From Trichodelitschia bisporula (Eukaryota), in NCBI GenBank assembly GCA_010356995.1, contig ML996696.1, forward strand, positions 126,364 through 190,363: DNA of 64,000 bases. The letters are read 5' to 3'. The notes beneath the pieces were generated by a model that made no database searches, was not told the origin of the DNA, and saw only the letters and a list, made by a program, of their open reading frames with translations. The position numbers were made by a program, and so were the translations under genes. How positions within the stretch are numbered: the first letter of the stretch is position 1; each line of letters starts with the position of its first letter. Shown piece by piece: positions 6,831 to 60,613 of the stretch.

Positions 6831-7699
6831 ATGTCGCTACTCCTTCAAAAACCAGACCTGGTAATCCTCACCCACGCCTCCGACTGGCCCGCCTGGGACG
6901 ACCAACTCCACCTCTTCCTCACATCCCACAACTCCTGGCCCGTCATCACCACTCGCGGCTTCCGGCCCGGCATGGACCTCTGGCGATCCGAAAGCGAAAA
7001 CAGGCACGACGCGTACCTCGACGCTATATCCACCCGGCCTGCGGGAACCACGGCCAAGGAGTTGAGAGCCGAGACCGTGGCCAAGGGGGAAAAGGCTTTG
7101 GAGTTTATGCTCGCGACGATAAGCCCGCTGTCACGCAGGTTGGTAGTGAGGTGGGCGTACAGTCCGACGCGGTTGTATGGCGTGTTAAGGGATATGTACG
7201 GGTGGGTGAAGGGGGAGAGGGGGGGGGAGATGTGGCGGGCTGTGTACGAGGCGCACAAGGCTGCGTACTTACGTGAGGATTTCGAAGAGTGGGCGCTGAG
7301 GTGGCTGGTGCTTGAGCAGTGGGGCTTGGAATGCGATGTCCCGGTCAAGGGGATGTGGAGGGATTTTGCACGGGTTATGGATACGCATGAGCCGAGGTGG
7401 CGCGTGCAGGCGGCGGAGGAGGTGGTGGATATTGATGAGGGGGACGAGGTGAGGGAGGTGGTTAGGCATTTTGTGAGGTGGATGTATTTTGAGAAGGTGA
7501 GGGGGGGTGTGGTGAGGGGGTGTGTGGGGCGGATGCTGACGCTTTCTAGGGGGGCGAGGAGGAGGAGGAAGAGGAGGAGGTGGTGGTGGAGGAGGTGGGG
7601 GTGGAGGTGGAGGAGGAGGAAGAGGAGGAGGAGGAGGAGGAGTTTAGCTCGCTTGGCTCGGCTGACGTTAAGCAGGAGGAGGAGGAGGAGGAGGAGTGA
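6831..7699 (+). CDS. Hypothetical protein with a copia-type Gag-like N-terminal region and a poly-Glu tail; 2 exons (intron 7497-7549)
   Basis: LTHASDWPAWDDQLHLFLTSHNSWPVI and EKALEFMLATISP...PTRLYGVLRDMYG resemble Ty1/copia Gag (DUF4219/UBN2-type) motifs. The GTGAGG...GCTGAC...TAG intron converts the Arg-rich frame of the ORF track into GGEEEEEEEE...QEEEEEEE* (222+50 codons). Confidence 0.7.
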
Positions 7700-8013
7700 A
7701 GGGGTATTGTTAGGGGGAAGATGGGTGGTGAGATTCATGAGATTCATACGCGGCCGAGAGCACTGGAGGAGATTGGGTCTGTCTTTGACGAGGATCGGAT
7801 AGGTGGCATGCGAGGCGTTCATGATGTTCTTCGTCGTTGTGTGGTGGATGCTTAATCAGCATATTGTACTGCCCCACTTCAGCCTTACCCTGTCGAATGC
7901 TTGATGCTTGGTTCTATGCACCCCGCAATGTTAAAAGCTTCCTCATCTTCGTCACCATCACCATCATCGCCGTCACAATCACCATCATCATCATCATCAT
8001 CGCCATCTTCGAC

Positions 8014-8262
8014 ATGGCGTTTTCCTTCCAAACCGATGGCCCTCCTGTCCCCTCTTCTGTCCGCAAAATCAAGCCATCGACAGGTGGGGAAGAGCTGCTC
8101 ACCTTCCTCGCCTCTACTGATCCACTCCCTCCCTTCCAACGTCGCGAATCCGAAGCCAAGGCCTCTCTCAGTCGTCTCCCTCCTCGCCTTCTTTACGAAA
8201 TACTGCGGTTCCTTAAACCTGCTTCACTTTCAGCCCTCGCCCTTACCCGTCGCGATATGTAA
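8014..8262 (+). pseudogene. F-box-like family member A, premature TAA
   Basis: LSRLPPRLLYEILRFLKPASLSALALTRRDM*ALYQPLL. The TAA falls where the paralog has CAA, and the family leader sequence is present upstream. Confidence 0.7.
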
Positions 8263-8894
8263 GCCCTTTACCAACCGTTACTTCGAGACATTAAGGTTGA
8301 ATGGCTTCGGGATCAGGAGAGAAATAAAGAGAGAGAATTTTGTTATGCCCCCATAGCTGCTGGTAAAACCAGGACATTTCGAACATCCAATGTGGGGTGG
8401 ATCCTTGCTAAATCACAGAGTTATGATATCGAGGCTCGGGCATCCGCCCCAAAAAGTTCTGAATATTGGTACTGAGACGCCTTTACAAAGAACGTGCAAA
8501 GGAACGTGCGGAGGAACGTGCGAAGCGTACCACTCTTGGGGAAGATGCTTGCTAAAGGAAGCCGTTCATGCCGTTGTTCCATACCGTACGCACGCCTGGG
8601 TCTGGCACCGATGACGTGCGAACAGTACCAGGAAAAAGTAACGGAGGACATCATATATCTATTCTGCAGAGGCTCTCGTCTCCAGTATCCTATCGGCCGG
8701 TTGGGCCGACGTCCAGGGCGGACGCCATACCGTCGCCAAATTACGACGCACTGCCCCCTTCAGCCTGACCCCGCCGAACATGATAAATGCTTGATTCCCA
8801 CCACCCCGCATCGCCTTCAGCCCCCCACATCTTCATCGCCGCTGTCACCACCACCACTAGCACCACCATCATCATCATCGTCATCACCTTCGAC

Positions 8895-9227
8895 ATGGCC
8901 GATTCCAAAACTGCCCCCGGTAGTCGCTCTCCGCTGAGCCCTCAGGTCGGCTCCACTTTCGAACTCAACAATGTTCCTCCTCCCCGTCAAGTCAGCACCT
9001 CTTTCGTCCTCAAAACCAAGCCGTCGACCGTAGGGGAGGCTCCGATTACCTACCTCGTCTTCACTGAACTCTCTCCCTTCCGACGCCGCGAATTCCAGGA
9101 TAGAGATCCCCTTAGTTCTCTTCCTCCTTTCCTTCTATTCGAAATCCTAAAGTTCCTAAAGTTCCTTACACCTGATTCACTTCCAGCCCTCGCCCGTACC
9201 TGTCGCGATATGCAAGCCCTTATCTAA
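8895..9227 (+). pseudogene. F-box-like family member B, premature TAA
   Basis: FVLKTKPST...TYL...LSSLPPFLLFEILKFL...SLPALARTCRDMQALI*P. The TAA replaces the conserved Gln of QP, and the downstream DNA is TA-rich. Confidence 0.7.
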
Positions 9228-10068
9228 CCAACAATAAGTAGTATAAGGCAGGCATGTGTTAATAGGTACGGAAGTTATGCGGGTACGATTTTTCGCTCTT
9301 ATGAAACGAAACTTCTCCTTCGCTATGAACTCTTTATTTATCCTTATAAGTCTACTAAAGGTAATTTACGTATATTTCCCCTCCTTTCTTATAATCAGCG
9401 CACACCATTTATATGTCAACTGCGCATACTTTCTACTTGCCCCCTATCTCCCTTCCCTACCCTACGATATGAAACTCAAGTTCGCTACGCAGAATGCTCT
9501 TAGAAAACTGCTGACTAGCCTATAGAAACGTTTTTGGCCAGTGTGGTCAATCCAACCGTTTTGAACGGAACGGAACCAGCCGTTTACTAGCAAATTGCGT
9601 GTATTCGTTTGCCGTGGGTTACACAGAACTGGTTGGATTGACCACTCTGGCTGTTGGGAAGCTACTAACTAATGGGTGCTATGAAATCTTTAGCCCAAGG
9701 TCTGAAAGCTAACCGATACATCCGCTCAATACCTGCTATATACATCCGCTCAATACCTGATGTAGACGCCTACCTACACGCCTACATGGAACCGGGGATT
9801 CCAGAAGGCCTCGCACGCCCACAGGAACCATTTCGCGCACGCCCGACAAAGCTGAGGTACTGCTGGGGAAACTTGGAAGAAAAAGATCTCTGACTTAATC
9901 GCGTGTCTCTGTTGGAGGAAGCTATCTACCATCTGGACCAGTTCAATTTAACCTGAATGCATGTGACTGGATGAAGCTGGAGGCTTGGAATGAGCGTGTT
10001 CTGCAGACGGAGGCACTTGAATGCCGCAGCATCGAGCATGAGAAGAAGTATTGATGTCCACGAATAGA

Positions 10069-49279: not shown

Positions 49280-49991
49280 CAGGAGGGGAATGCATGACAT
49301 CATACTCATAGGAGGGCAGTCGGAGGGCGGGCAGGAGCGCCCGAACGCACCTGCACCCTGGAGAAGGAAGGCATGATTGGGTAGAGAGAGCTCGGCATCG
49401 ACGAACTAATGAAATGTAAATGCACCATCAGCACTCCTTAGTCGCGAAGACTCACTAGCCATTGTTCAGAAGCTCACGATGCAGATGCGCGGGTTATGCT
49501 CTGCGTTGGAAACGAGGAGCAGAATGACTGTAACCGCGCTTGTTAAAAGCTTAGCGCAGAGGAAGCTCTTGCACGATCTCTATGAAGCCATAATCCACTT
49601 ACTCCACGTACCACACACTTCTCTTTAACCCTGAAACAGAGCATTCTCAAGACCGAAGGTCACTTTCCCTTTCCTGTAGGCATACGAGTAATTCTCTAAT
49701 ATTATCATATTCGTCAAAGCCAAGAATTTCGATCCAGTCCTCCTCTACAACTTCCGAGTAGAACGAGCGGCTTTGAGGGTTCATCAAAATAAGCCCATCA
49801 AATCCCACAGTTGCAAACTCGGAGAGGAAGCCAAACTGTCCATCCATTGAAATCTCGTAGCCATCACCAAGAATAGTTCCCAATCCTCATAGCTTGCCAT
49901 GAGAGCGCTCAGAGTTGCTCCTAAGATCATAATGAACGACCTTGTTCTACTTACTTCCTACGCGCTTGCAAGGCGGATTCGGCGAACTTAG

Positions 49992-50267
49992 CTACATACA
50001 TAATAAACGAATAGGGTGCCTTGATTCCCATTGTGAAGAATCTTGATACATAATTATAGCTCTCATACGCTTGTAGGAGTCGAGTGTCGGGTGTAGGCTT
50101 GAATATAAGTCGTTGGACACGCGGGCAAGACATACTAGGTCGCTTATTGGGAGAAATAATGAAATTTTAGAGCCGACTTCGACCGGAAGAAGGGTAAGGC
50201 GGGATTCGAATGGCTGGCGATCGGCGATTAACGGTCGTTTGGCGGAATGGGGGCTTGAGAATGGCAT
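49992..50267 (-). pseudogene. F-box-like family member C (truncated or frameshifted)
   Basis: RLTLLPVEVGSKISLFLPISDLVCLARVSNDLYSSLHPTLD. Confidence 0.6.
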
Positions 50268-51273
50268 TTGAGGCTGCTGAAGACGGAAATAAGTGTAGTC
50301 TGTGAGGGGAATGGAGAGTTGTACTGCAGATATCAGGTCTCGAAAAATCTACCCACAGCTGGCATTTACGGCGAATCCAACTTTGGAGGAATGAGACTGA
50401 GATGGGGCTGTGCATATAATGACTTATCATCGTTACTACAGGTCAAGCTGGCACATTTTCAGCCGACATGAGCTCAATCCGCTCCTTTGCAATGCGTCGA
50501 TCGTCCATGAAACGAGCTATGTGCCTTGCTAAAAGACTCCAGTAATTCGCTCATGATGGAGCGCATAAAAGCGAGGGCGACGATAGAAGCACGGGGAATG
50601 TGAGGTCCGACGTTGGAGCTGATTTTCAGGGAATGGGGAATCCATTTCGAATGGCTTGTCATTAGGTGGTTGCGGCGGCGGACTGTGATAGAAGGGAGAG
50701 ACTCCAGAGAAAGATGAGATGATCAGGGTTGGGAGGGGAGAGGGTGTGCTTCTCTTCAAGTCTTCTGCAGGAGGTTGACCGGGATGTTCAACATTGATGG
50801 CGGGGGAAAAAGTTGATCCGGTTGCGTTCCCCCAGGTCATGATATGGAGGAGGGTCGCATTGCGCTTTTTAGCTCCCTCAATGTTTCTGCGCTTGGTGAT
50901 ATGGACATGAACTCAGAAATGCCTTCATCAAGCGCTGAATCATCATTTGCCCGTGGCTTGCTTTTGGACTCTGTCTCCAAAGATATCAGAGCTCTTTCAT
51001 CCCCATCACCACGCGCTGTACACGATCGCAGCCAAACCAGATGTTCCGATGCATTCTAAGAGCAGCCACAATTCCGCTTGGACAGCAGCACACTAGAATA
51101 AAGGCTGAGGATCAGGTGAAGCATCGACAAGCAGCGGTAAGGCATACCTGCTCCCGGGCGCTCTCATTTCCGTCGCTCGCTGGCGCCGCGACACAGCGAG
51201 CACCCAACCCTCCACCTCAGTCCACCAACCCTCCGCACCCACCAGTGAATTCCCAACGACCCAAACCCCACAC

Positions 51274-51736
51274 CTAGAAGCCTCTGCCACCTCTCCCCCG
51301 TCCGCGTCCCCGGCCGCGGCCCCTCCCACGCGGACCCCCGCGCGGAGGACCACCCCGATCCGCCGTCTCCTTCCGGGCCTTGTTGCGCGGCTTAGGCGCG
51401 TCGTCGATGAGCAGACTATCGAGCGGCAAGCTGTCCGGCAGAACGATGTAGCGGATGGTGTTGCCGCGGATGTTGATAGTTTCGAGGGTGAACGGCTCGC
51501 GGCCCTTGGGGCTGACCTTAACCGTACGCAGCGCCGTGTTCATCTGCGGGGAGACGGAGGCAATGGTGCCATGGAGGACGGTGCCTGAGTGTGTTAGTGC
51601 GGTTGGAGGGGGGGAGGGGCTGGGACGGACCGTTTTTGAGCTCGATGGAGACGGTTTCGTTGGCGCACTTCATTAGGAATCTGAGGGGTTAGCTGGGCAG
51701 GAGCTAGATTTTGGGGGCTTACCGGACGAGCTTCAT
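51274..51736 (-). CDS. SMD1: Small nuclear ribonucleoprotein Sm D1; introns 51681-51722 and 51585-51630
   Basis: [29 protein letters not shown]...[16 protein letters not shown] and an RG-repeat tail. Confidence 0.97.
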
Positions 51737-52890
51737 GGTAGTGGTAGTTGGCTGGTTATGGTTTGTGTGAGGGAGCTTCGGGATGTGTGGTGATGGCGCG
51801 TTGTTTGGTGGTTTAGGTGGAGGTTGGAGGACGAGGTGTTGATGAGCACGGACCCTTGGACCAGGCAGCGCACCGAATTATTTTCTCTGCCTGGGGCATG
51901 AATTTGTGGCGGGGGGATACCTGACTCTATCTCGACATCAGACTGCGCCTTCGAAGTCGCATCACGATTTTCATTAGCAACTATAATGTCAATGTACACT
52001 TTTCATGCTTAGTCCCTTTTTTTCGTCTGAATCTCTTCTGTAGGCCTCTCCTTGCTCAATGACGGAAATATCTCGACCATACCGTGAAAGAGGTGCTTTC
52101 TCTGTCCCGGCCTTCCCCCTCAGTACCGACCGCTCAGCTCCCTGTCCCGTTTGAGATGCACATTGTATCCGCGCAGCTGACCCATCAGGTCTTCTCGCAT
52201 GGTACCTCGGCGGGTGCTGAGTTCCAGTTCCAGCCCTCCAAGTTCATGACTATACCCGTCATCTCCGCAGTTATCGAGCCCCAGGCCAATGGTTTATCTG
52301 CGAACTCTGAGACCGAAGCAACTCGTTGCTTATCACGAGCGATTAGTTGGATCACTGGGCGCCGCGCCTGGAGGTTCCATGTCTGAAATCGGCGAGGATG
52401 GAAGCATCGGGAACACGCTGCTTTAGATACTGACCACTAGGGATGAAGCCGAACGATACGTCAAAGGGGATGTTGAATTAGTGCTTTGGGGGGCTGTAGG
52501 CTGGCCGATGGTGCAGAGACACGTGTTAAGAGGAGGTCAACGCGCTTGATATCCGCAATTATCCAGGAACGGCACAGCCGTCCTCAGTGTTACAGCAAGC
52601 ACGACCTCGAAGTTCGAGCGACCAACCTCCAAAGACGACATCTACTTGCATTCACCATGAAAACTGGGGCCAGCTACCCTGTGCAGTAAAACAAACGAGT
52701 TCTCTCTCAACATCATCCTCGCGGCACGACGACCACCGCCGAGAACTTGAGAGCCTGGCCCCAATCCGGCGTCATCAAGCTCCTTGCCTCGCAGTGTGTG
52801 CGACAGGAATTCCGCTTCACCTTTCTCCCCAAAACTCCTCGCCTGGTCTTCATGCATCTCCCTCGCGGTGGCCTCCCACGCGGTGCACAT

Positions 52891-53493
52891 CTAGTTCGGA
52901 TACAAATTGGTTCGTGGAGGATGAGAAACAAATTCGACGTCTTCATCTAGAAAAGAGTCAATACATAACCTTTGTTCGTCTAGTGCGAACTCACCTCTGT
53001 AGCTGAAGGTTCCCGCACTGCTCCTCCTTCGTATAACATCGAAGGGTTGATGAACCCACTCGTCCCTCGGCCTCCGCGACCCCTCTCGCAACATTACCGT
53101 CCCCAGCAAAAATAATTCTGCTAGTGCCGTTTGCTGCGCTATTCGTCTTTCAGTAACTGACCCCAGCCGCCCTGCTCGTTCCTTCCGTAGGTCTTGGGAT
53201 ATAAGGGCAAAGTTCATCAGGAGATGAATTCGTTCCTTTTCAGAGCCAAAGGCCTTAAGAAAAGGCCACACTGTTTCGATCAAGGTGGAGATTGGGTAGT
53301 AGAAGCAGAAGGCGAAGACAGAAGGGGGGGCGAGGTAATAGATGATTCTTGCTATTATTTCCGGGGGAAGCATGAGGAGGCCAATCTCTATTCGAGGTTC
53401 AGTGGTGGGGCGAGGCTGCCGCGTTGGCTTGAGGACGGGCGCAGGAAGGTATCTCTCGACCTCGAGGGGTTGGAGAGAACTGCTCGATGCCAT
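52891..53493 (-). CDS. F-box-like family member D (divergent, ORF open)
   Basis: MASSS...GLLMLPPEIIARIIYYLAPPSVFAF. Confidence 0.55.
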   Translation of the reverse strand: MASSSSLQPLEVERYLPAPVLKPTRQPRPTTEPRIEIGLLMLPPEIIARIIYYLAPPSVFAFCFYYPISTLIETVWPFLKAFGSEKERIHLLMNFALISQDLRKERAGRLGSVTERRIAQQTALAELFLLGTVMLREGSRRPRDEWVHQPFDVIRRRSSAGTFSYRGEFALDEQRLCIDSFLDEDVEFVSHPPRTNLYPN

Positions 53494-53834
53494 GGTGAAG
53501 TTCCTTGATGTTGAGTCAGAACGGATGTCGTGAGATGGGACATCGCGCAGTTCGTCCTGAGGGGTTGAGGAGGCTGTGCATAATGTTGCCCTATCATGGC
53601 TTTCAGAGAAGCAACATCGTACGGTACTCGCGGGGCTATTCTCTACAAGCAAAGATGGAAGTATTATTGCTAACTCTCTATCGCAGGAAGCTATGTCATT
53701 GCCACACCGGACACCTCCTATAGCTAACTGCGTCAGTGCCCCTAATAAGCATGAACATTGGTGACCGTCGTCATTAGTTGCTCCGATGAGGTACAGACAC
53801 TCCCTATCCTACTCTTGAATCGACGACAGCATCT

Positions 53835-55157
53835 CTACATGTTGTGATAGTAAATGCCTATGAGGTAACGTATTCCCTCACGTGTCATACTTATATGAGG
53901 TTCAATATCTTTCGCTCCTAAATGCACTCGATACTGCTCCTCAGCCTCCTGTGCCGCAGCCATAAGCCTCGGCGGGTCCTCTATCATTCCCATAAGTACC
54001 GTCCGCACCTCGGCCACATCCGGCAGCGAAATCGGGGAAACTAGGGGTAACATTTCGTTCCCCGAAATAGCGTTTACAAGTACAACGAAGCGCTCTATGT
54101 TTCCCAGGATCTTCGCATTGCAAGTTCTGATCTCTTCGACCTCATGGACGCCTAAAAAGCGCTTTTTGTCCACCAGACCCTCAGGGTGGGAGGCCCCAAT
54201 CGCATCCTCAAAGGCCGCGGTGAACGCGAGCACGCGACCCACAAGTATGCGATTCGCAAGTTCAATGCGCATTTTGTACTCCTCGGCCGCAGAGAGGCAG
54301 ACTTTGAGCTAGGCACTGAAGTACTCGTTTGAGTGGACTATTAGTAGTGCTCGACTTAGTAGTTCGTTGGCTCTTTTTACAAAGATTTCGCTGGAAGTGG
54401 AGCCGCCGAGCTTGTGCTCTGCTGGTCGAGAGAATTCGATTTTGAGTTCGACGTCTTCTTCGTTTTTGACAACGTCGCTGGGCTTGCGCTTTGTGGGTCG
54501 CGGAAATTCGTCTCCGAGGTCCTCTCCACTTTCGACAACGTCGCTGACATCTCCCTTAACATCGCTCTCAGCGTTGTCCCGAATGTGGCTCCTAGATTCC
54601 GGCAAACGAAAACTCTTACGCAGCTGTCCGTAATACGAGATGTCCAGAACTAAGTGGTGTATATCAGAAAAGAAAAAAAACTTCAACTTCGTAGAGGCAG
54701 CCACGGAGTTTATAATCGACATACCTGAATGAGACCCCAGCCGTGCCACATATGAAGAGTTGATAAAATTGAGGTATAAAGACCTCGAAAGGAATTTCAT
54801 TTCCACCATATGAAATAATTGCCCAGCCCTTGCAATATTCCATTCGTATGATCGAGCCATAAGGATTTTTGATCACTGATTGTTCGCTGGAGAGAGACGT
54901 TCATAGCATAGTAGGTACGGGCGAGGGCCAGAAGTGATGCAGGTGGTAGGGACATCATGATTTCGAAAAAGGTCAGGAGGAAGACTGCTGAGAGGGTCCT
55001 CGGGTTGGTATTGGATGCCTCGAAAGGGAGGGAGTGGTTTGGCGGAGGAGAGGTAGGTAAGTGGGGCATCCCCTGCGAACGACTCTTTGGTGCTGAGGAT
55101 ATAAGAGGCAGTGATATCACGGTTACGACGGTGAGTGGTTTCAGAAGAGGGTGTCAT
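53835..55157 (-). pseudogene. F-box-like family member E, long and disrupted by frameshifts and one in-frame TAG (54309-54311)
   Basis: YILSTK...APLTYLSSAKPLPPF...PLSSLPPDLF, then after a frameshift LPPASLLALARTYYAMN. ORFs 54309-54860 and 53835-54272 are in the same frame. Confidence 0.7.
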
Positions 55158-55990
55158 GTCGAAATGATGATAATTGTGATGGTGATTGCGGTGGTAGTAG
55201 TGACGGGAGAGCTGATAATGACGTGGAGTAGAAGGAATCAAGCATTTCTTCAGAAGTCGAGGCAGTACCGGGTATCTAGAAGTAAGCCGATGGAGGGATA
55301 AGGCTGAGCGGGGCTGTGTTGATGATAGCGGTGAAAGGTTTAAAGGCAGCCTGTGAAACTCATGGCCGCCGCACCCAGCCGCCTTTGCTGACCGCGGCGG
55401 CCATGACTTTCTCGGATTCCCCGGGCCACTAGTATATGGATGCGGGGAAAGGAACTCTTACCGTAGTCCCTTGGCTACCAACAACCTTTTCCTCCTCAAC
55501 ATCAGCTCCTCGCTTTCACTCCCAATGCACCTGCTCCTCAATCCCCTGAACCGCACAAGCCGCGACGGCTCCTCAAGGTTCCTATTACCACCGTGTGCGC
55601 CTCGGCCACGTCCCGCAGTAAAAAGCTCGCGAAGGCTCGCGAAGGTCGAGGCGTCTTGGTACTCATACGTCTTCACACTCCTTCATATTCCTTCACACGC
55701 GCCCGGCTTCCCCTCAACAACTCTTACCCAGGCTAACGTTGTGCAGAGCCCTCGCGAGCTCCCTCCGCTGCACGGCCTCATTTACGCGTGGGAACGCTTG
55801 ATGGCGATATTCTACGAGCGGCAGACGAAGCAGCACAAATGCACACGATGGAGTACACTTGTACTTAGCTCTTCCGGGGCAAACCTAATACAACCCACGC
55901 TTGTTAGAGCCAAGAACAAAGAAGCTTTGGGTAAGTGAATCAAGCGCTACCTCAGAGATCTTTAACGGCACGCATATTCGAACTGCACGT

Positions 55991-56161
55991 GGGGGCGTAG
56001 TGCTCTTTACGTCAGTACTCGATAGTGATGGGGAAATGATCGTACTCGCCTGGTGCTTTATTTGCCCGTAGCCGGCCTCAATTTTGGCTAGCTACGGGCA
56101 AATAAAGCATCAGGAAAGTACGGTCATTTCCCCATCACCGTCCAAAGAGTAGTACGCCCCC
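55991..56161 (+). repeat. Long inverted repeat / hairpin (core arms of about 53 bp, 56025-56138)
   Basis: gtgatggggaaatgatcgtactcgcctggtgctttatttgcccgtagccggcc / ggctagctacgggcaaataaagcatcaggaaagtacggtcatttccccatcac, plus an outer gggggcgta..gctcttt / aaagagt..tacgccccc stem. Confidence 0.92.
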
Positions 56162-56479
56162 CCGGGCTGCTCGGAGATGCGTGCCGTCAATGACTTGTAA
56201 GGCAGCGCTTGATGTAATTACCCAGAGCTTGTTCTCAACTCCATCAGAAGCAGCTTCTATTGGGGTTGCCCTACGAGAGCTGAGCACAAGTATACATTGT
56301 CCTTTGCCGATAATAGCTTTGTATCGGCTAGCTAGTCGTCTGCATGGTTCATTTTGAACCGCGCTGGACGCTCGCAACAGCGCACAGAAATTTGATAAAC
56401 GTATTAGGAATAGTTTCAGCATCTAGACTTTGGGCGTTTTTGGTGATATCTAATCTATTCGATTCCTTTGCCGAAACTG

Positions 56480-56920
56480 TTATCCAATGGCTCCTTGGAG
56501 TGTGTTTGGCCGGGCCGAAAACCCATACCTATTTGTACTTGTTCCCACAGTAACGTCAGTCAACTCCCTGGAAAGGAACATGAGGAGGTTGAGAAAGAAA
56601 TCAAATGTATTAAAGCCACTCCGAGGTCTTGGGATATATCCTTCCGTATGGGGGGAGCATTTTCGTTTGTAGAAGCTGAGTGTAGGTTGGAGAATGGCAT
56701 TCATGTGGCGACAGGCCAGGGCGAGGGCTAGAATTGAAGCAATTTGAAAGGGACTCCCGTGTTTTGAAAAAGATATCATGAGGAATCTTAGTGAGGGGAC
56801 GTTCGATCAGGAGTTCGCGGCGTCGAATGGGGGGGAGTAGTTCGGTGGAGGAGAGGTACGTCAGTGAAGCTCCTGTGGTCTACAGCTTGGTTTTGAGGAC
56901 GAAAGAGCCGGCGTGGTGGC
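56480..56920 (-). pseudogene. F-box-like family member F, stop plus frameshift
   Basis: FVLKTKL*TTGASLTYLSSTELLPPIRRRE..., then after a frameshift ASILALALACRHMNAILQPTL. Confidence 0.7.
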
Positions 56921-57074
56921 TATCAGTTCTTCTGAGGGGATCTCTGCCTTGAAACTCGGCTTCTCGGAAGGGGCAGGTTAGTGGAGCTCCTATTAAGAAC
57001 GAAAGAGGATAATTGTTGACTCTCTCCCATAGCTTCATGAAAACTGAAAATTCCCGGGCAACCGGTAAGTTGCG

Positions 57075-57389
57075 CTAAGCGTCCAGGCCCCCATCTCCAA
57101 GGTAAACGAGCCTCCCAAACCTAAGTAGGGGTTGGAGGATGAAATTTGTAGCATGGCAGGTAAGGGCGAAGGCTAGAAGTGAAGCGTCTGGAAGGTAGCG
57201 TACGATGCTGATAAAGAGAGGAGCAGGAAGACGATTGAAGGGCGACTTTCCGGCTTGGACTTCGGGACGTTGGAAGGGAGGTAGTGGAGGGGTAGAGAGG
57301 TAGGTAAGCGGGGCTCCTGTCATCGACGGCTTGGTTTTAAGGATAAAAATAGTGATATTACGGCTATCAGTGCGGGAAGAGGCCGCCAT
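57075..57389 (-). CDS. F-box-like family member G (104 aa; may be truncated)
   Basis: MAASS...FILKTKPSMTGAPLTYLSTPPLPPFQRPEVQAGKSPFNRLPAPLFISIVRYLPDASLLAFALTCHATNFILQPLL. Confidence 0.65.
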   Translation of the reverse strand: MAASSRTDSRNITIFILKTKPSMTGAPLTYLSTPPLPPFQRPEVQAGKSPFNRLPAPLFISIVRYLPDASLLAFALTCHATNFILQPLLRFGRLVYLGDGGLDA

Positions 57390-57652
57390 ATCGAAGACGA
57401 TGTTGACGAGGATGATGATGGAGCTGAAGACGATGCGGGGTGGAAGGCACCAAGCATTTATTCCAGAGTCGGGCCGGTAAGGCTGAAGGGAAGTAGTGCA
57501 TATGCTGAGCACAACGTACGGTAGCAGGCATGAAGAAAAAAACCACTAACAATGCTAGGAAAAAGCGATGCAGATCGTGTAATAGCCGATTGAATTATCC
57601 TACAACCCCTCTCGTCCACTACTACAGTACAGTCCACCATTCGGCACGCATT

Positions 57653-58153
57653 CTAATCTAGATGGGAACTTGTTGACTGCGAGATTATTGAGTGAAAGAT
57701 TCTAAGCCTATCCATGAATTCACGGGTAGAGAAAGGCTGCCTCAAGTACGAAGAGAAAGTTTCGGCGACTCCCTTCTCGAGGTGCCATAGCTCTATGAGA
57801 ACTTTTATATCTCGGACAAGCGCCGGCACGTTGCGCAAAGCGCCTACATCCCTAACCATGACAAGGGAAATGAGCCTCCGAACCTTAAGCATCGGTTGGA
57901 GGAGAAAATTTGTAGCATGGGAGGTAAGGGCGAAGGCGGAAAATGAAGCGTTTGGAAGGTAGAGTACGATTCTAGTAAAGATAGAAATAGGAAGACGACT
58001 AAAGAGCTCTCCGGCTTGGACTTCGGGGCGTTTGAAGGGAGGGAGTGGTTCGGCGGAGGAGAGGTAGGTGAGCGGGGTTCCTGCTGTTGACCACTTGGTT
58101 TTGAGGACAAAAGAGGCGCCATGACGGTCAGAAGGTTGGAAGGAGGACGCCAT
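57653..58153 (-). CDS. F-box-like family member H (166 aa)
   Basis: MASSF...FVLKTKWSTAGTPLTYLSSAEPLPPFKRPEVQAGELFSRLPISIFTRIVLYLPNASFSAFALTSHATNFLLQPML. Confidence 0.7.
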   Translation of the reverse strand: MASSFQPSDRHGASFVLKTKWSTAGTPLTYLSSAEPLPPFKRPEVQAGELFSRLPISIFTRIVLYLPNASFSAFALTSHATNFLLQPMLKVRRLISLVMVRDVGALRNVPALVRDIKVLIELWHLEKGVAETFSSYLRQPFSTREFMDRLRIFHSIISQSTSSHLD

Positions 58154-58240
58154 GTCGAGGATGACAACGGTGATGCGGATGATGATGGCGGTCGTGGTGG
58201 CCGTTGTGAGGGGGGCTTAAACGATGCGGGGTAGAGGGAA

Positions 58241-58867
58241 TCAAGCATTTATCCTAGAGTCGGGCCGGTAAGGCTGAAAGGTGGCAGTGCATCCCACCAG
58301 TAGGTTCGGCAAATGTGATGCAGATCGAGCACTGCGTAGATAACCACTCGAATTACCATACAAACTGCTCACGTCTCGCTCCATTTCAGCATCCGAAATG
58401 AATTCAAAAGAGCGTTGCCCGAGTGAGAAGTTCTCGGAGAGGACTCGGATACTGGAAAAAATCTCAGTGACCCCCCTCACGAGATACCGCTGGACGATGG
58501 GAGGTTTGGGTTCGCAAAGAAATTCTATCAAGCCGTACGTAACCACTGGGTCCCCAATTGAGGCGAGATAGCAGAGCCTCTGGAGCCTGAACATCGGTTG
58601 GATGAGGGAGTGCGTAGCGTGACAGGTAAGGCGCAAGGCTGGGACTGAGCCTTCTGGAAGAAAAGACAGGATGATAAAAAAGATACTAACAGGAAGGGTA
58701 CTAAAGTGCTCTCCGACGTAGAATTCGCGATGTTGGAAGGGAGCAAGGGGTTCGGTGGAGGAGAGGTATGTGAGCGGGCTCGGCGGGGTTATCCCTATAG
58801 TTGACGGCTTCGTTCTAACGATAAAAAAGGGGACGTGACGGTCACTAGTTTGGGAGGAGGCCGCCAT
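58241..58867 (-). CDS. F-box-like family member I (runs into the leader of member H)
   Basis: MAASS...FIVRTKPST...PLTYLSSTEPLAPFQHRE...FSTLPVSIFFIILSFLPEGSVPALRLTCHATHSLIQPMF. Confidence 0.7.
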   Translation of the reverse strand: MAASSQTSDRHVPFFIVRTKPSTIGITPPSPLTYLSSTEPLAPFQHREFYVGEHFSTLPVSIFFIILSFLPEGSVPALRLTCHATHSLIQPMFRLQRLCYLASIGDPVVTYGLIEFLCEPKPPIVQRYLVRGVTEIFSSIRVLSENFSLGQRSFEFISDAEMERDVSSLYGNSSGYLRSARSASHLPNLLVGCTATFQPYRPDSRINA

Positions 58868-59385
58868 ATCAATGATTTCGAAGTGAAGATGATGACGAGA
58901 ACGATCAGAGAGCTGAAGACGATGCGGGGTAGAGGGAATCAAGCATTTTTATCCCGGAGTCGGCGCGGCAAGGCTGAAGGGGCCAGTGCACTGTCTGACT
59001 AAGCATCCACCATGCAACGACGAGGAGCATCTTGTATACAGTACTATCTATCTGACAGAAGAAACATCCAATCTAGCTTCATCGTTCAGACACGAGTAAA
59101 CCTTCGTCATTAACGAATACGTCCATCACCGGTACACACAAACCCGCGGCCCAAGCGAACCCATAAGGTTAATCGATGTCATGGGAGGATACCATCTCTC
59201 CCATGTCAAATGGCCACATGCCCTGTATGGGTCACGTGACCCGGTAAGATTGATGCCGGATGCTGCAATTCCAGCCCCGGCTGGACTTGCCGGGTAAGGG
59301 CTTGGCGCTGGCCTGGGCGCTAGCACCCCCAGCTCCCCCACACTCCAAATTCAGACGCGAAACCTTTACATAGTTCTTCAAGCTT

Positions 59386-60097
59386 TCAATGAATGTTATT
59401 CCACAACCAATGCTGTGCAACCAGTGATTTGTGCGCCCCGACAATCGACAACGCAAGCGAATATTGGACAGAAGAACCAAGCGCAAGAGAACATTGCAAA
59501 GAGGAAGCAACAGGTATACGCGGTAAATGTACAGATACAGATAGGTACTCAGGGTTCCAGCGAACGAGTTGCCTGTACTGCGAGAGGAAGAGCGCAGTGC
59601 AGCGCTGCAGGGGAAGGAAATAGTCGGCCATGGTTGAACCGCAGGGCACGGACTGGAGTAGTTTTAATACCAGGACGTGCTGTTCCGTGATGCTGGATTT
59701 GACGAGTAAGTCCGTGGACCGGCGGACTAGATCAGTCGCTTGGACCTCCTCCTCAATTTCTTCCTCGATTTCCTCCTCGATTTCCTCCTGAATTTCGTCC
59801 TCGATTTCGTCCTCGAGAGTCCTTGAATGATCGATCCGGGCACCCTTGTGGACATCGAGTATAGGCTGCACAATGGCATTCAAATCGCGAGAAACGCGGG
59901 CAAGACATGGTAGCGCGCCATCTGGAAGGAAGAGTAGAATCCGGGAGTGGAGGTCGATGGGAAGGGAGGTGAAGTGGGCGCCGCATGGCTTGCGGTCGGC
60001 GAAGTGCAAGAGCCGTGTAGTTGAACGGCGTTTGAGGGTGGAAGGAGGATCTGAGGGGGATGATGAAGCTTCGTTGAAGACTAATGCGTCGGATCAT
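59386..60097 (-). pseudogene. F-box-like family member J with an acidic (EEEI)n repeat; 5' part frameshifted
   Basis: HFTSLPIDLHSRILLFLPDGALPCLARVSRDLNAIVQPILD...EDEIEDEIQEEIEEEIEEEIEEE. Confidence 0.6.
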
Positions 60098-60613
60098 GGC
60101 GCAAGGCTGAGGGGGAGGATGGGCTTGGCTCCGGGCCGAAAGGTAGGTTAGAAGAGAAAAGTGCACCAGGCAGAAGGCTTAGCGGCGAGTCGAAAATTGC
60201 TGGAAAGACGAATAACTCATTATTTTAAATAGGATGCGGCTCTGTCGCTCGTTGGGGTTGTGTTGTTTCTACCGAACGGCGCATTGGTCGCTTCAAGAGG
60301 CCGTACCAGAGGCCGTTTTTCAAGGCGGCCGATATTTTCGGGCAACCACCCATTTCACCTGCTAATTTAGAAGACCCCAGATAAACATTGCGCTGGCAAT
60401 TATAACCCTCCAGAAACACACCACAGGTGCGCGGAAGTACTCCTCCAAGGCAAAGTAGCAGGAGAGGCTATTCGACACGGATCAGCAGAACACGCCACGC
60501 CCCGATATTATCGGGCAACCAACCTCACATGCCAGTTTAGAATACCGCAGATAAACTCGTACTGTCCATTACAAACATTCAGAGACACAGATTAGCCGTC
60601 CCACCCCCCCAAA

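Follow-up and report, generated by a model that had tools for sequence, protein, structure and literature searches.

A probable birth-and-death family of F-box-like genes in the ascomycete Trichodelitschia bisporula, with a conserved front end and divergent tails

A 64,000-nucleotide stretch of the fungus Trichodelitschia bisporula (contig ML996696.1, positions 126,364 to 190,363; hereafter the window) carries a group of small genes that share an F-box-like N-terminal peptide. They probably represent a young, lineage-restricted F-box-like family of an ascomycete fungus that is undergoing birth-and-death evolution, or 'genomic drift'. The family would have grown as whole gene units were duplicated locally in tandem, probably through unequal crossing-over, and would now be drifting, with half of the copies dead and the open ones weakly constrained and poorly or aberrantly expressed. 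Between classes of copies, only a front end of about 450 bp appears to have been kept; the tails are short and domain-free, and seem to end wherever a stop falls. Tandem whole-unit duplicates, pseudogenes and restriction to a single lineage, the features that define birth-and-death evolution, are all found here. The phenomenon is of a kind already known; what is new is a motif that precedes the F-box and a leader that is conserved together with it.

To locate the copies, a profile was built from the three cleanest units (G, H and I) and run over the six-frame translation of the window. The full N-terminal peptide was recovered in seven copies, A and B on the plus strand at 8-9 kb and E, F, G, H and I on the minus strand at 54.9-58.9 kb, and the F-box part alone was recovered in J; the tandem array proposed in the initial annotation thus exists. 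The ten members considered below are the following, with the family-profile match given where there is one:

A, 7820..8276, plus strand: upstream element, leader at 7868-7950, ATG at 8014 and N-terminal domain; profile match at 8014-8286 (E 2.5e-21).
B, 8745..9229, plus strand: leader at 8745-8835, ATG at 8895 and N-terminal domain; profile match at 8994-9239 (E 2.6e-16).
C, 49992..50267, minus strand: open reading frame (ORF) of 91 amino acids (aa) with an F-box-like stretch (Pfam F-box-like, E 7.6e-4).
D, 52891..53493, minus strand: two-exon expressed gene with a 184-aa product.
E, 53835..55265, minus strand: long form (unit of about 1.75 kb), leader at about 55184-55265, ATG at 55157; profile match at 54878-55127, split over two frames (E 4e-11 and 5e-3).
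F, 55266..56930, minus strand: decayed long-form copy; profile match at 56669-56930, split over two frames (E 3e-14 and 5e-3).
G, 57075..57501, minus strand: leader at 57415-57501 and open 104-aa ORF at 57075-57389 (database protein P0003); profile match at 57093-57389 (self hit, E about 1e-53).
H, 57653..58292, minus strand: leader at 58200-58292 and open 166-aa ORF at 57653-58153 (database protein P0002); profile match at 57854-58153 (self hit, E about 1e-53).
I, 58241..59034, minus strand: upstream element and leader at 58895-59034, open 208-aa ORF at 58241-58867 (database protein P0001); profile match at 58562-58867 (self hit, E about 1e-53).
J, 59386..60110, minus strand: degenerate leader and an F-box frame open for 214 codons (59386-60030); profile match at 59845-59988 (E 2e-8, F-box part only).

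The initial annotation had described co-oriented minus-strand members plus two at 8-9 kb; E to J are indeed on the minus strand, but A and B lie on the plus strand. The start-to-start spacing of G, H and I was measured as 764 and 702-714 nt, in agreement with the period of roughly 710-760 bp that had been proposed. Units measure about 0.7-0.8 kb in G/H/I, about 1.75 kb in E/F and 0.88 kb in A/B. With the family profile, C (50082-50198) and D (53305-53373) are not significant (E 2.9 and 5.9), and C has neither the family leader nor the pre-F-box motif, its nearest member being J (49% over 55 aa by tblastn). Judged by sequence, C and D are best taken as putative distant F-box-like neighbours, C on the basis of Pfam and D of language-model features only. 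The GC content of the window, mostly 0.56-0.63, falls to 0.49-0.53 at 8-10 kb and at 52-60 kb.

Duplication of whole units is most evident in G, H and I, where the DNA alignment continues through the tail into the spacer before the next leader. By blastn, G and H (57027-57501 versus 57785-58292) are 72% identical over 511 nt, the homology of G with the H tail stopping at about 57027. Local alignment of the tails alone gives z scores of 20 for I-H and 19.7 for H-G, and none of 100 shuffles reaches the observed score. Because the whole unit, tail included, was duplicated, these three are ordinary diverged paralogs. Their tails differ in length because stops fall at different places in the same homologous DNA, and not because the sequences differ: the stop comes early in H, G is truncated, and I continues to a TAA within the leader of H, into which the final 17 or so codons of its ORF are read. 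Similarly, E and F have the same unit length and a common distal tail patch (55513-55618 versus 53909-54026; 118 nt, 70%, z 22.5), the rest of the tail being unalignable. All other tail pairs, that is A-B and 18 cross-class pairs among A, B, E/F, G/H/I and J, are at chance level, and in these the similarity ends abruptly about 20-40 nt after the LQP motif that closes the conserved peptide. Hence, the 'unrelated C-termini' of the initial annotation hold between classes and for A-B, but not within G/H/I, which align, nor for the distal patch of E-F. Tails that align as ordinary diverged paralogs, an outcome it had named as contrary to its model, are seen within classes and not between them. The tree of the heads, with (I,(H,G)) and (A,B) as groups and E and F on long branches, matches the tail classes.

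Half of the copies (A, B, E, F and J) are broken, while G, H, I, C and D are open, as expected from the birth-and-death family with open and broken copies that had been proposed. In A, a TAA at 8260-8262 interrupts the F-box where B has CAA; in B, a TAA at 9225-9227 replaces the Q codon of LQP. E carries a 2-nt frameshift in the F-box, after which its tail ORFs (54309-54860 and 53835-54272) are split by stops. F has no leader and no ATG, a TAG in the KTK motif, a frameshift in the F-box and a tail closed in all frames. Finally, the F-box frame of J has no ATG before residue 134.

Several smaller features lie within or next to these copies. Just downstream of B, a 115-nt unit at 9537-9651 is bounded by 21-nt inverted repeats (95% complementary) and is preceded by an AT-rich stretch at about 9230-9530, unlike the rest of the window; the unit may be a relic resembling a miniature inverted-repeat transposable element (MITE) that replaced the original B tail. 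The decayed tail of F contains a 315-nt foldback at 55919-56233, with outer arms of 90 nt (78% complementary) and an inner hairpin with 53-nt arms (89%), which is covered by RNA contigs. A search of Rfam gave only a match of a miRNA-precursor hairpin at 56033-56130, which at 37 bits stays below the gathering score of 90, and the foldback may represent either a MITE-like insertion or a hairpin RNA. An extra head fragment, which lies on the minus strand (56940-57000) after the end of G and before the start of F, was recognized by eye in the ORF translation, where it reads ...APLT.CPFREAEFQGRDPL...; here about 20 codons, within the ORF at 56880-57038, repeat the head piece PF.REFQ.RDPL. Since this piece recurs upstream of F, the G/F junction is read as a scrambled extra fragment, whose sequence indicates that units putatively recombined out of register or underwent a deletion between them. 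The tail of J contains a 12-nt repeat (59735-59816, minus strand) in five overlapping copies, which encodes an acidic (E-E-I-E)n run. An alternative frame rich in serine and proline is open in H (57844-58248) and A (7904-8356); it is not open in the other units and was dismissed as chance.

Constraint on the open copies is limited. Pairwise dN/dS (omega) over 80-166 codons ranges from 0.44 to 0.91 in ten pairs and lies at 0.44-0.75 in seven of them. A value near 1 together with a lack of expression had been named in advance as speaking against the proposed system; omega of G-H, at 0.91, is near 1. Decay by repeat-induced point mutation (RIP) was considered and rejected: 215 polarised differences among G, H and I include 68 GC>AT and 69 AT>GC transitions, only 5 of 42 C>T changes are followed by A, and the composite RIP index is never positive (-0.10 to -0.28 in the arrays, -0.33 to -1.04 in the flanks).

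The family is also narrowly distributed. Among 1.84 billion representative proteins, only four strong matches (E<=1e-10) were found, namely G, H, I and P0004. The last is a 236-aa protein encoded on a different contig and not in the window, 40-50% identical to the window copies. Its frame is open, its tail belongs to a class distinct from those of the window, and its annotated N-terminus is a translation of the family leader. P0004 and P0017, the database protein that the spliced product of D matches letter for letter, are both named as T. bisporula proteins. In word-based homolog searches, I retrieved only itself and D only its own annotated form. Because only G, H, I and P0004 match strongly, the FVLKTK / PLTYLSS / PLPPF motif that precedes the F-box appears to be confined to this one organism, as far as the searched libraries show. 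A literature search, which was non-exhaustive, found no paper on this family and none joining Trichodelitschia with the F-box.

What the classes have in common is the front end, which consists of a short upstream element, a leader that includes an ATG ahead of the main one, a (CAT)n spacer of variable length and a domain of about 95 aa. The shared front end that had been described, with its sharp 3' limit between tail classes, is therefore borne out. When up to 3 mismatches are allowed, the leader motif GATAAATGCTTGATTCCC is seen four times where 0.03 would be expected, each time in front of a member, and CTTCAGCCTTACC, at up to 2 mismatches, is seen 10 times where 1.4 would be expected; in a scan of the window, the leader motifs were found only with members. 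The leader was said to be common to most members: it is present in A, B, E, G, H and I, but degenerate in J and absent from F, C and D. Upstream of the leader, 7820-7889 of A matches the region upstream of I at 81%. Conservation of the DNA is highest in the leader core, at 0.71-0.94 identity, and in the PLTYLSS..PLPPF block, where all eight of the pairs examined lie at 0.73-0.93. No conserved RNA structure was detected in the leader (4 predicted pairs, no covariation, -0.2 kcal/mol), which would act as a promoter or as a control element in the 5' untranslated region.

The conserved peptide is probably F-box-like, and we do not file it as a proven Pfam member. Every Pfam F-box match lies below the curated cut-off: G scores 20.8 bits and C 19.6 against 24.3 (PF12937), I scores 19.7 and J 20.4 against 20.5 (PF00646), and H and P0004 reach 14.2 and 18.2 bits, while E and D have no Pfam F-box match. 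These sub-threshold matches (E 3e-4 to 4e-2 for G, H, I and C) all fall in the same register, G, H, I, C, P0004 and J each aligning to positions 1-36 of the F-box profile. Conversely, the family profile has 12 weak matches (E 6e-7 to 6e-4) among the 1.84 billion representatives, and 11 of them, all except P0014, carry a Pfam F-box or F-box-like domain above cut-off; the matches fall on query positions of about 33-148, mostly about 48-90. Against PDB sequences, the profile gives only E-values of 0.23-0.67, below significance, two of the four rows being the F-boxes of AnkB and Fbw7. The nearest ESM Atlas clusters of H and D are small ascomycete F-box proteins (0.90-0.91; D 0.91), and for H, nine of the ten Atlas structure rows correspond to F-box clusters, all at template-modelling (TM) scores <0.5. 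P0004 and P0017 bear the public-source label 'F-box domain-containing'. Two AlphaFold (AF2) models, with predicted local distance difference test (pLDDT) values of 68 and 71, place a beta-hairpin (FVLKT / LTYLS) ahead of three helices at the expected F-box position (56-64, 68-75 and 79-100), followed by tail helices. The F-box pattern of the initial annotation is thus upheld weakly, by the reciprocal profile, the common register and the Atlas neighbours, but not by any Pfam score above cut-off. The intact products (G, H, I and perhaps C and D) would dock on Skp1 through this element, as F-box-only adaptors or competitors. Beyond chance-level rows, the tails of G, H and I and the tail ORFs of E match no Pfam family at E<=1; no C-terminal substrate-binding domain (WD40, LRR, Kelch and the like) was found, and the one E tail ORF searched (53835-54272) has no homolog among longer proteins.

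Transcription was followed in two sequencing runs of one sample, which hold 54-70% of the sampled words of the window. Their label as RNA is a guess; we treated them as RNA because they contain spliced joints and their depth is uneven. Nine joints have canonical intron ends (GT..AG or CT..AC), including those of the neighbouring Sm gene and of D, and the depth spans three orders of magnitude, at 1.5-50 in bins of the array versus >3000 at the Sm gene. The RNA contigs give neither strand, ends nor levels, and hence show presence only. They cover D in spliced form (a 48-nt in-frame intron at 52947-52994, defined by an RNA joint), the head and tail of E, the tail of F, H, and J. In E, an intron at 54650-54724 is seen and the frameshift is confirmed by a contig with 0 gaps. 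H and its leader are fully covered by an unspliced contig (57632-58451); H may be read within the transcript of I, since the contig with the splice joint of I continues through H. RNA from the family, a check proposed at the outset, is therefore present, but low and partly mis-spliced.

Two further observations concern these RNA data. On the plus strand opposite G, one low-depth contig has two short GT..AG introns (57160-57220 and 57300-57352), whose donor sites are the antisense of conserved ALTC and LTYLS codons. At 59177-59439, the depth jumps to 245-620, and loose ends at 59177, 59209, 59232 and 59439 run into unlike sequence, one of them being nearly the reverse complement of the sequence centred locally on GTCACGTGAC. 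The pattern points to a short element, either repeated or palindromic, that highly expressed loci elsewhere would also contain.

A number of results weigh against a drifting family of F-box-like genes that grew by duplication of whole units. No member reaches the curated cut-off of PF00646 or PF12937; a Foldseek search of the PDB with both models gave no match at E<=0.001; and a wide structural search (VIA-align) placed three F-box chains (beta-TrCP, FBXO42 and Fbw7) among 50 rows at Z 4.2-4.6, which is not above background. The splice joint of I removes 58452-58690 (239 nt, GTTAGT...CAG), deleting the F-box and shifting the frame to leave 74 aa; the GT that serves as its donor is peculiar to I. 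All leaders contain an ATG upstream of the main one, and the frame of the first relative to the second shifts with the length of the (CAT)n spacer. In an ungapped block of 68 codons, omega in the F-box frame is 1.11 for G-H, 0.61 for G-I and 0.63 for H-I, and the other two frames give 0.68-1.19; because the F-box frame is hardly better than these, any purifying selection is weak. Finally, the tails of A and B are wholly unlike, although their heads are separated by 0.37 substitutions per site versus 0.40 for I-H, whose tails can be aligned. The A-B heads are 72% identical at a period of 882 nt, and on sequence grounds this pair appears to be the clearest case of a real tail replacement. The sharp common 3' limit of the head and the A-B replacement are left unexplained by whole-unit duplication.

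These last two points are what a duplicating head cassette would account for, the model originally put forward. Under it, a module of about 450 bp, comprising the promoter and the N-terminal F-box, duplicates and lands before unrelated DNA, giving new adaptors or Skp1 decoys, and duplication of whole units (G/H/I, E/F) is only a secondary step. Identity does drop steeply after LQP, from 0.55-0.75 to 0.23-0.38 within about 40 columns in A-B, A-H, B-I, E-H and F-H. The chance-level result for A-B and the 18 cross-class pairs was obtained although simulations of neutral homology with indels give a power of at least 0.9 at 45% substitutions; this falls to 0.5-0.8 at 50% and 0.2-0.4 at 55%, and synonymous differences between classes are 0.38-0.53. 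The window contains at least five tail classes, to which P0004 adds a further one, and the leader is never seen without a member. Nevertheless, failure to align does not prove non-homology, because the E and F tails are homologous, judging by unit length and the residual patch, and yet are almost wholly unalignable. No inverted repeat of at least 16 nt brackets any cassette (7600-9900 and 53500-60200; target-site duplications were not systematically searched), and a transposon-borne cassette was rejected, as neither inverted repeats nor other mobile-element marks were found around the cassettes. Moreover, one copy in two is dead, and the loci number only three. The tails are short, contain no Pfam domain and owe their length to the position of a stop, and the E tail ORF that was searched found no longer relative, which lends no support to the acquisition of new tails that had been suggested. 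We therefore regard the cassette as fairly unlikely. It is also unlikely that the head of about 450 bp, from the upstream element to the F-box, is a self-contained duplicative module that repeatedly seeds genes before arbitrary DNA, so that new Skp1-binding proteins with de novo tails arise and disappear in one fungal lineage; if true, the head would generate Skp1-cullin-F-box (SCF) adaptors or Skp1 competitors naturally, by exon shuffling or with de novo tails.

An apparent boundary could also arise by concerted evolution, if the copies were old whole-gene duplicates in which conversion keeps leaders and heads alike while tails drift to saturation. For I-H, the proportions of synonymous (pS) and nonsynonymous (pN) differences are 0.33 and 0.26 in the head versus 0.62 and 0.50 in the tail, and protein-level selection alone does not explain this halving of both; the non-coding leader core, too, is more alike (0.71-0.94) than 1-pS of the same pairs. 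The tail alignment, however, stands at 29% amino-acid identity, which inflates pS and pN, and rests on few sites. With heads only 66-72% identical, no recent conversion can have taken place, and the head tree recovers G/H/I and A/B just as the tail classes do, making this account very unlikely. Alternatively, no copy might encode a working protein, the array being a transcribed pseudogene or non-coding repeat in which the frames of G, H and I are open by chance. The G-H omega near 1 and the small difference from the control frames fit such a relic, as do the loss of the F-box from the spliced I transcript, the spliced antisense RNA across G, the upstream ATGs in all leaders and the accidental ORF ends. 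Three adjacent frames of 104-208 codons have nevertheless stayed open at 28-31% nucleotide divergence, the PLTYLSS..PLPPF block is kept in every pair examined, omega is 0.44-0.75 in most pairs, and P0004 is also open on another contig; a pure relic thus seems highly improbable. The initial annotation had further suggested a role in defence or non-self recognition, which is unsupported, as no finding bears on either.

In plants and nematodes, F-box families serve as textbook examples of rapid gene turnover, and the birth-and-death reading places the array beside them. The F-box superfamilies of plants and Caenorhabditis are reported to evolve by birth-and-death or 'genomic drift' (PMC3030570, PMC8665587). 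With these superfamilies, the present family shares tandem expansion within a lineage, numerous pseudogenes, weak constraint, and C-terminal parts that change fast next to a conserved F-box. It differs from them in having only a few copies, spread over three loci of a fungus, very short products of 104-208 aa with no recognisable C-terminal domain, an F-box below Pfam cut-offs, and a co-conserved leader and pre-F-box motif. The small F-box-only hypothetical proteins of the Ascomycota (ESM Atlas clusters of 95-154 aa, with PF00646/PF12937 on 23-87% of members) resemble it in size, in phylum and in having the F-box as sole recognisable element, and are nearest by language-model features (0.90-0.91); they have no sequence homology to it beyond the F-box, and the pre-F-box motif is found only in the window and P0004. 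Canonical SCF substrate receptors (Fbw7, beta-TrCP and FBXO42 with Skp1: PDB 5ibk, 6ttu, 9o04) have in common with it the LP..I...I..L pattern and three predicted helices in register, and the profile aligns to the F-boxes of Fbw7 and AnkB (E 0.35-0.61). Unlike them, the family appears to carry no tail of the WD40, LRR or Kelch type; every match is weak statistically, and Skp1 binding is putative.

Within 10 kb, the locus shows all stages of the process: an expressed gene, open young copies, and truncated, frameshifted and stop-riddled ones, with a sharp boundary separating a conserved regulatory-plus-F-box front end from disposable tails. Few fungal F-box examples are well dissected at the level of units, lesions and transcripts. 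Should the intact copies bind Skp1, they would represent a minimal kind of F-box-only protein in which a new motif precedes the F-box; should they fail to do so, the array would be a clean case of transcribed gene debris that is publicly annotated as three proteins.

The surroundings of the arrays are those of a eukaryotic, fungal genome, with intron-bearing housekeeping genes for Gpi1, ERG2, a RecQ helicase, Pkr1, SGT1 and an Sm protein. The region directly upstream of A (6831-7822) contains two long ORFs, of 323 and 325 aa, that overlap on opposite strands, match no Pfam family and have a long low-complexity end rich in R/W (or in L). Between J and the SGT1-family gene, 60329-60420 and 60502-60589 form a 92-nt direct repeat of 77% identity.

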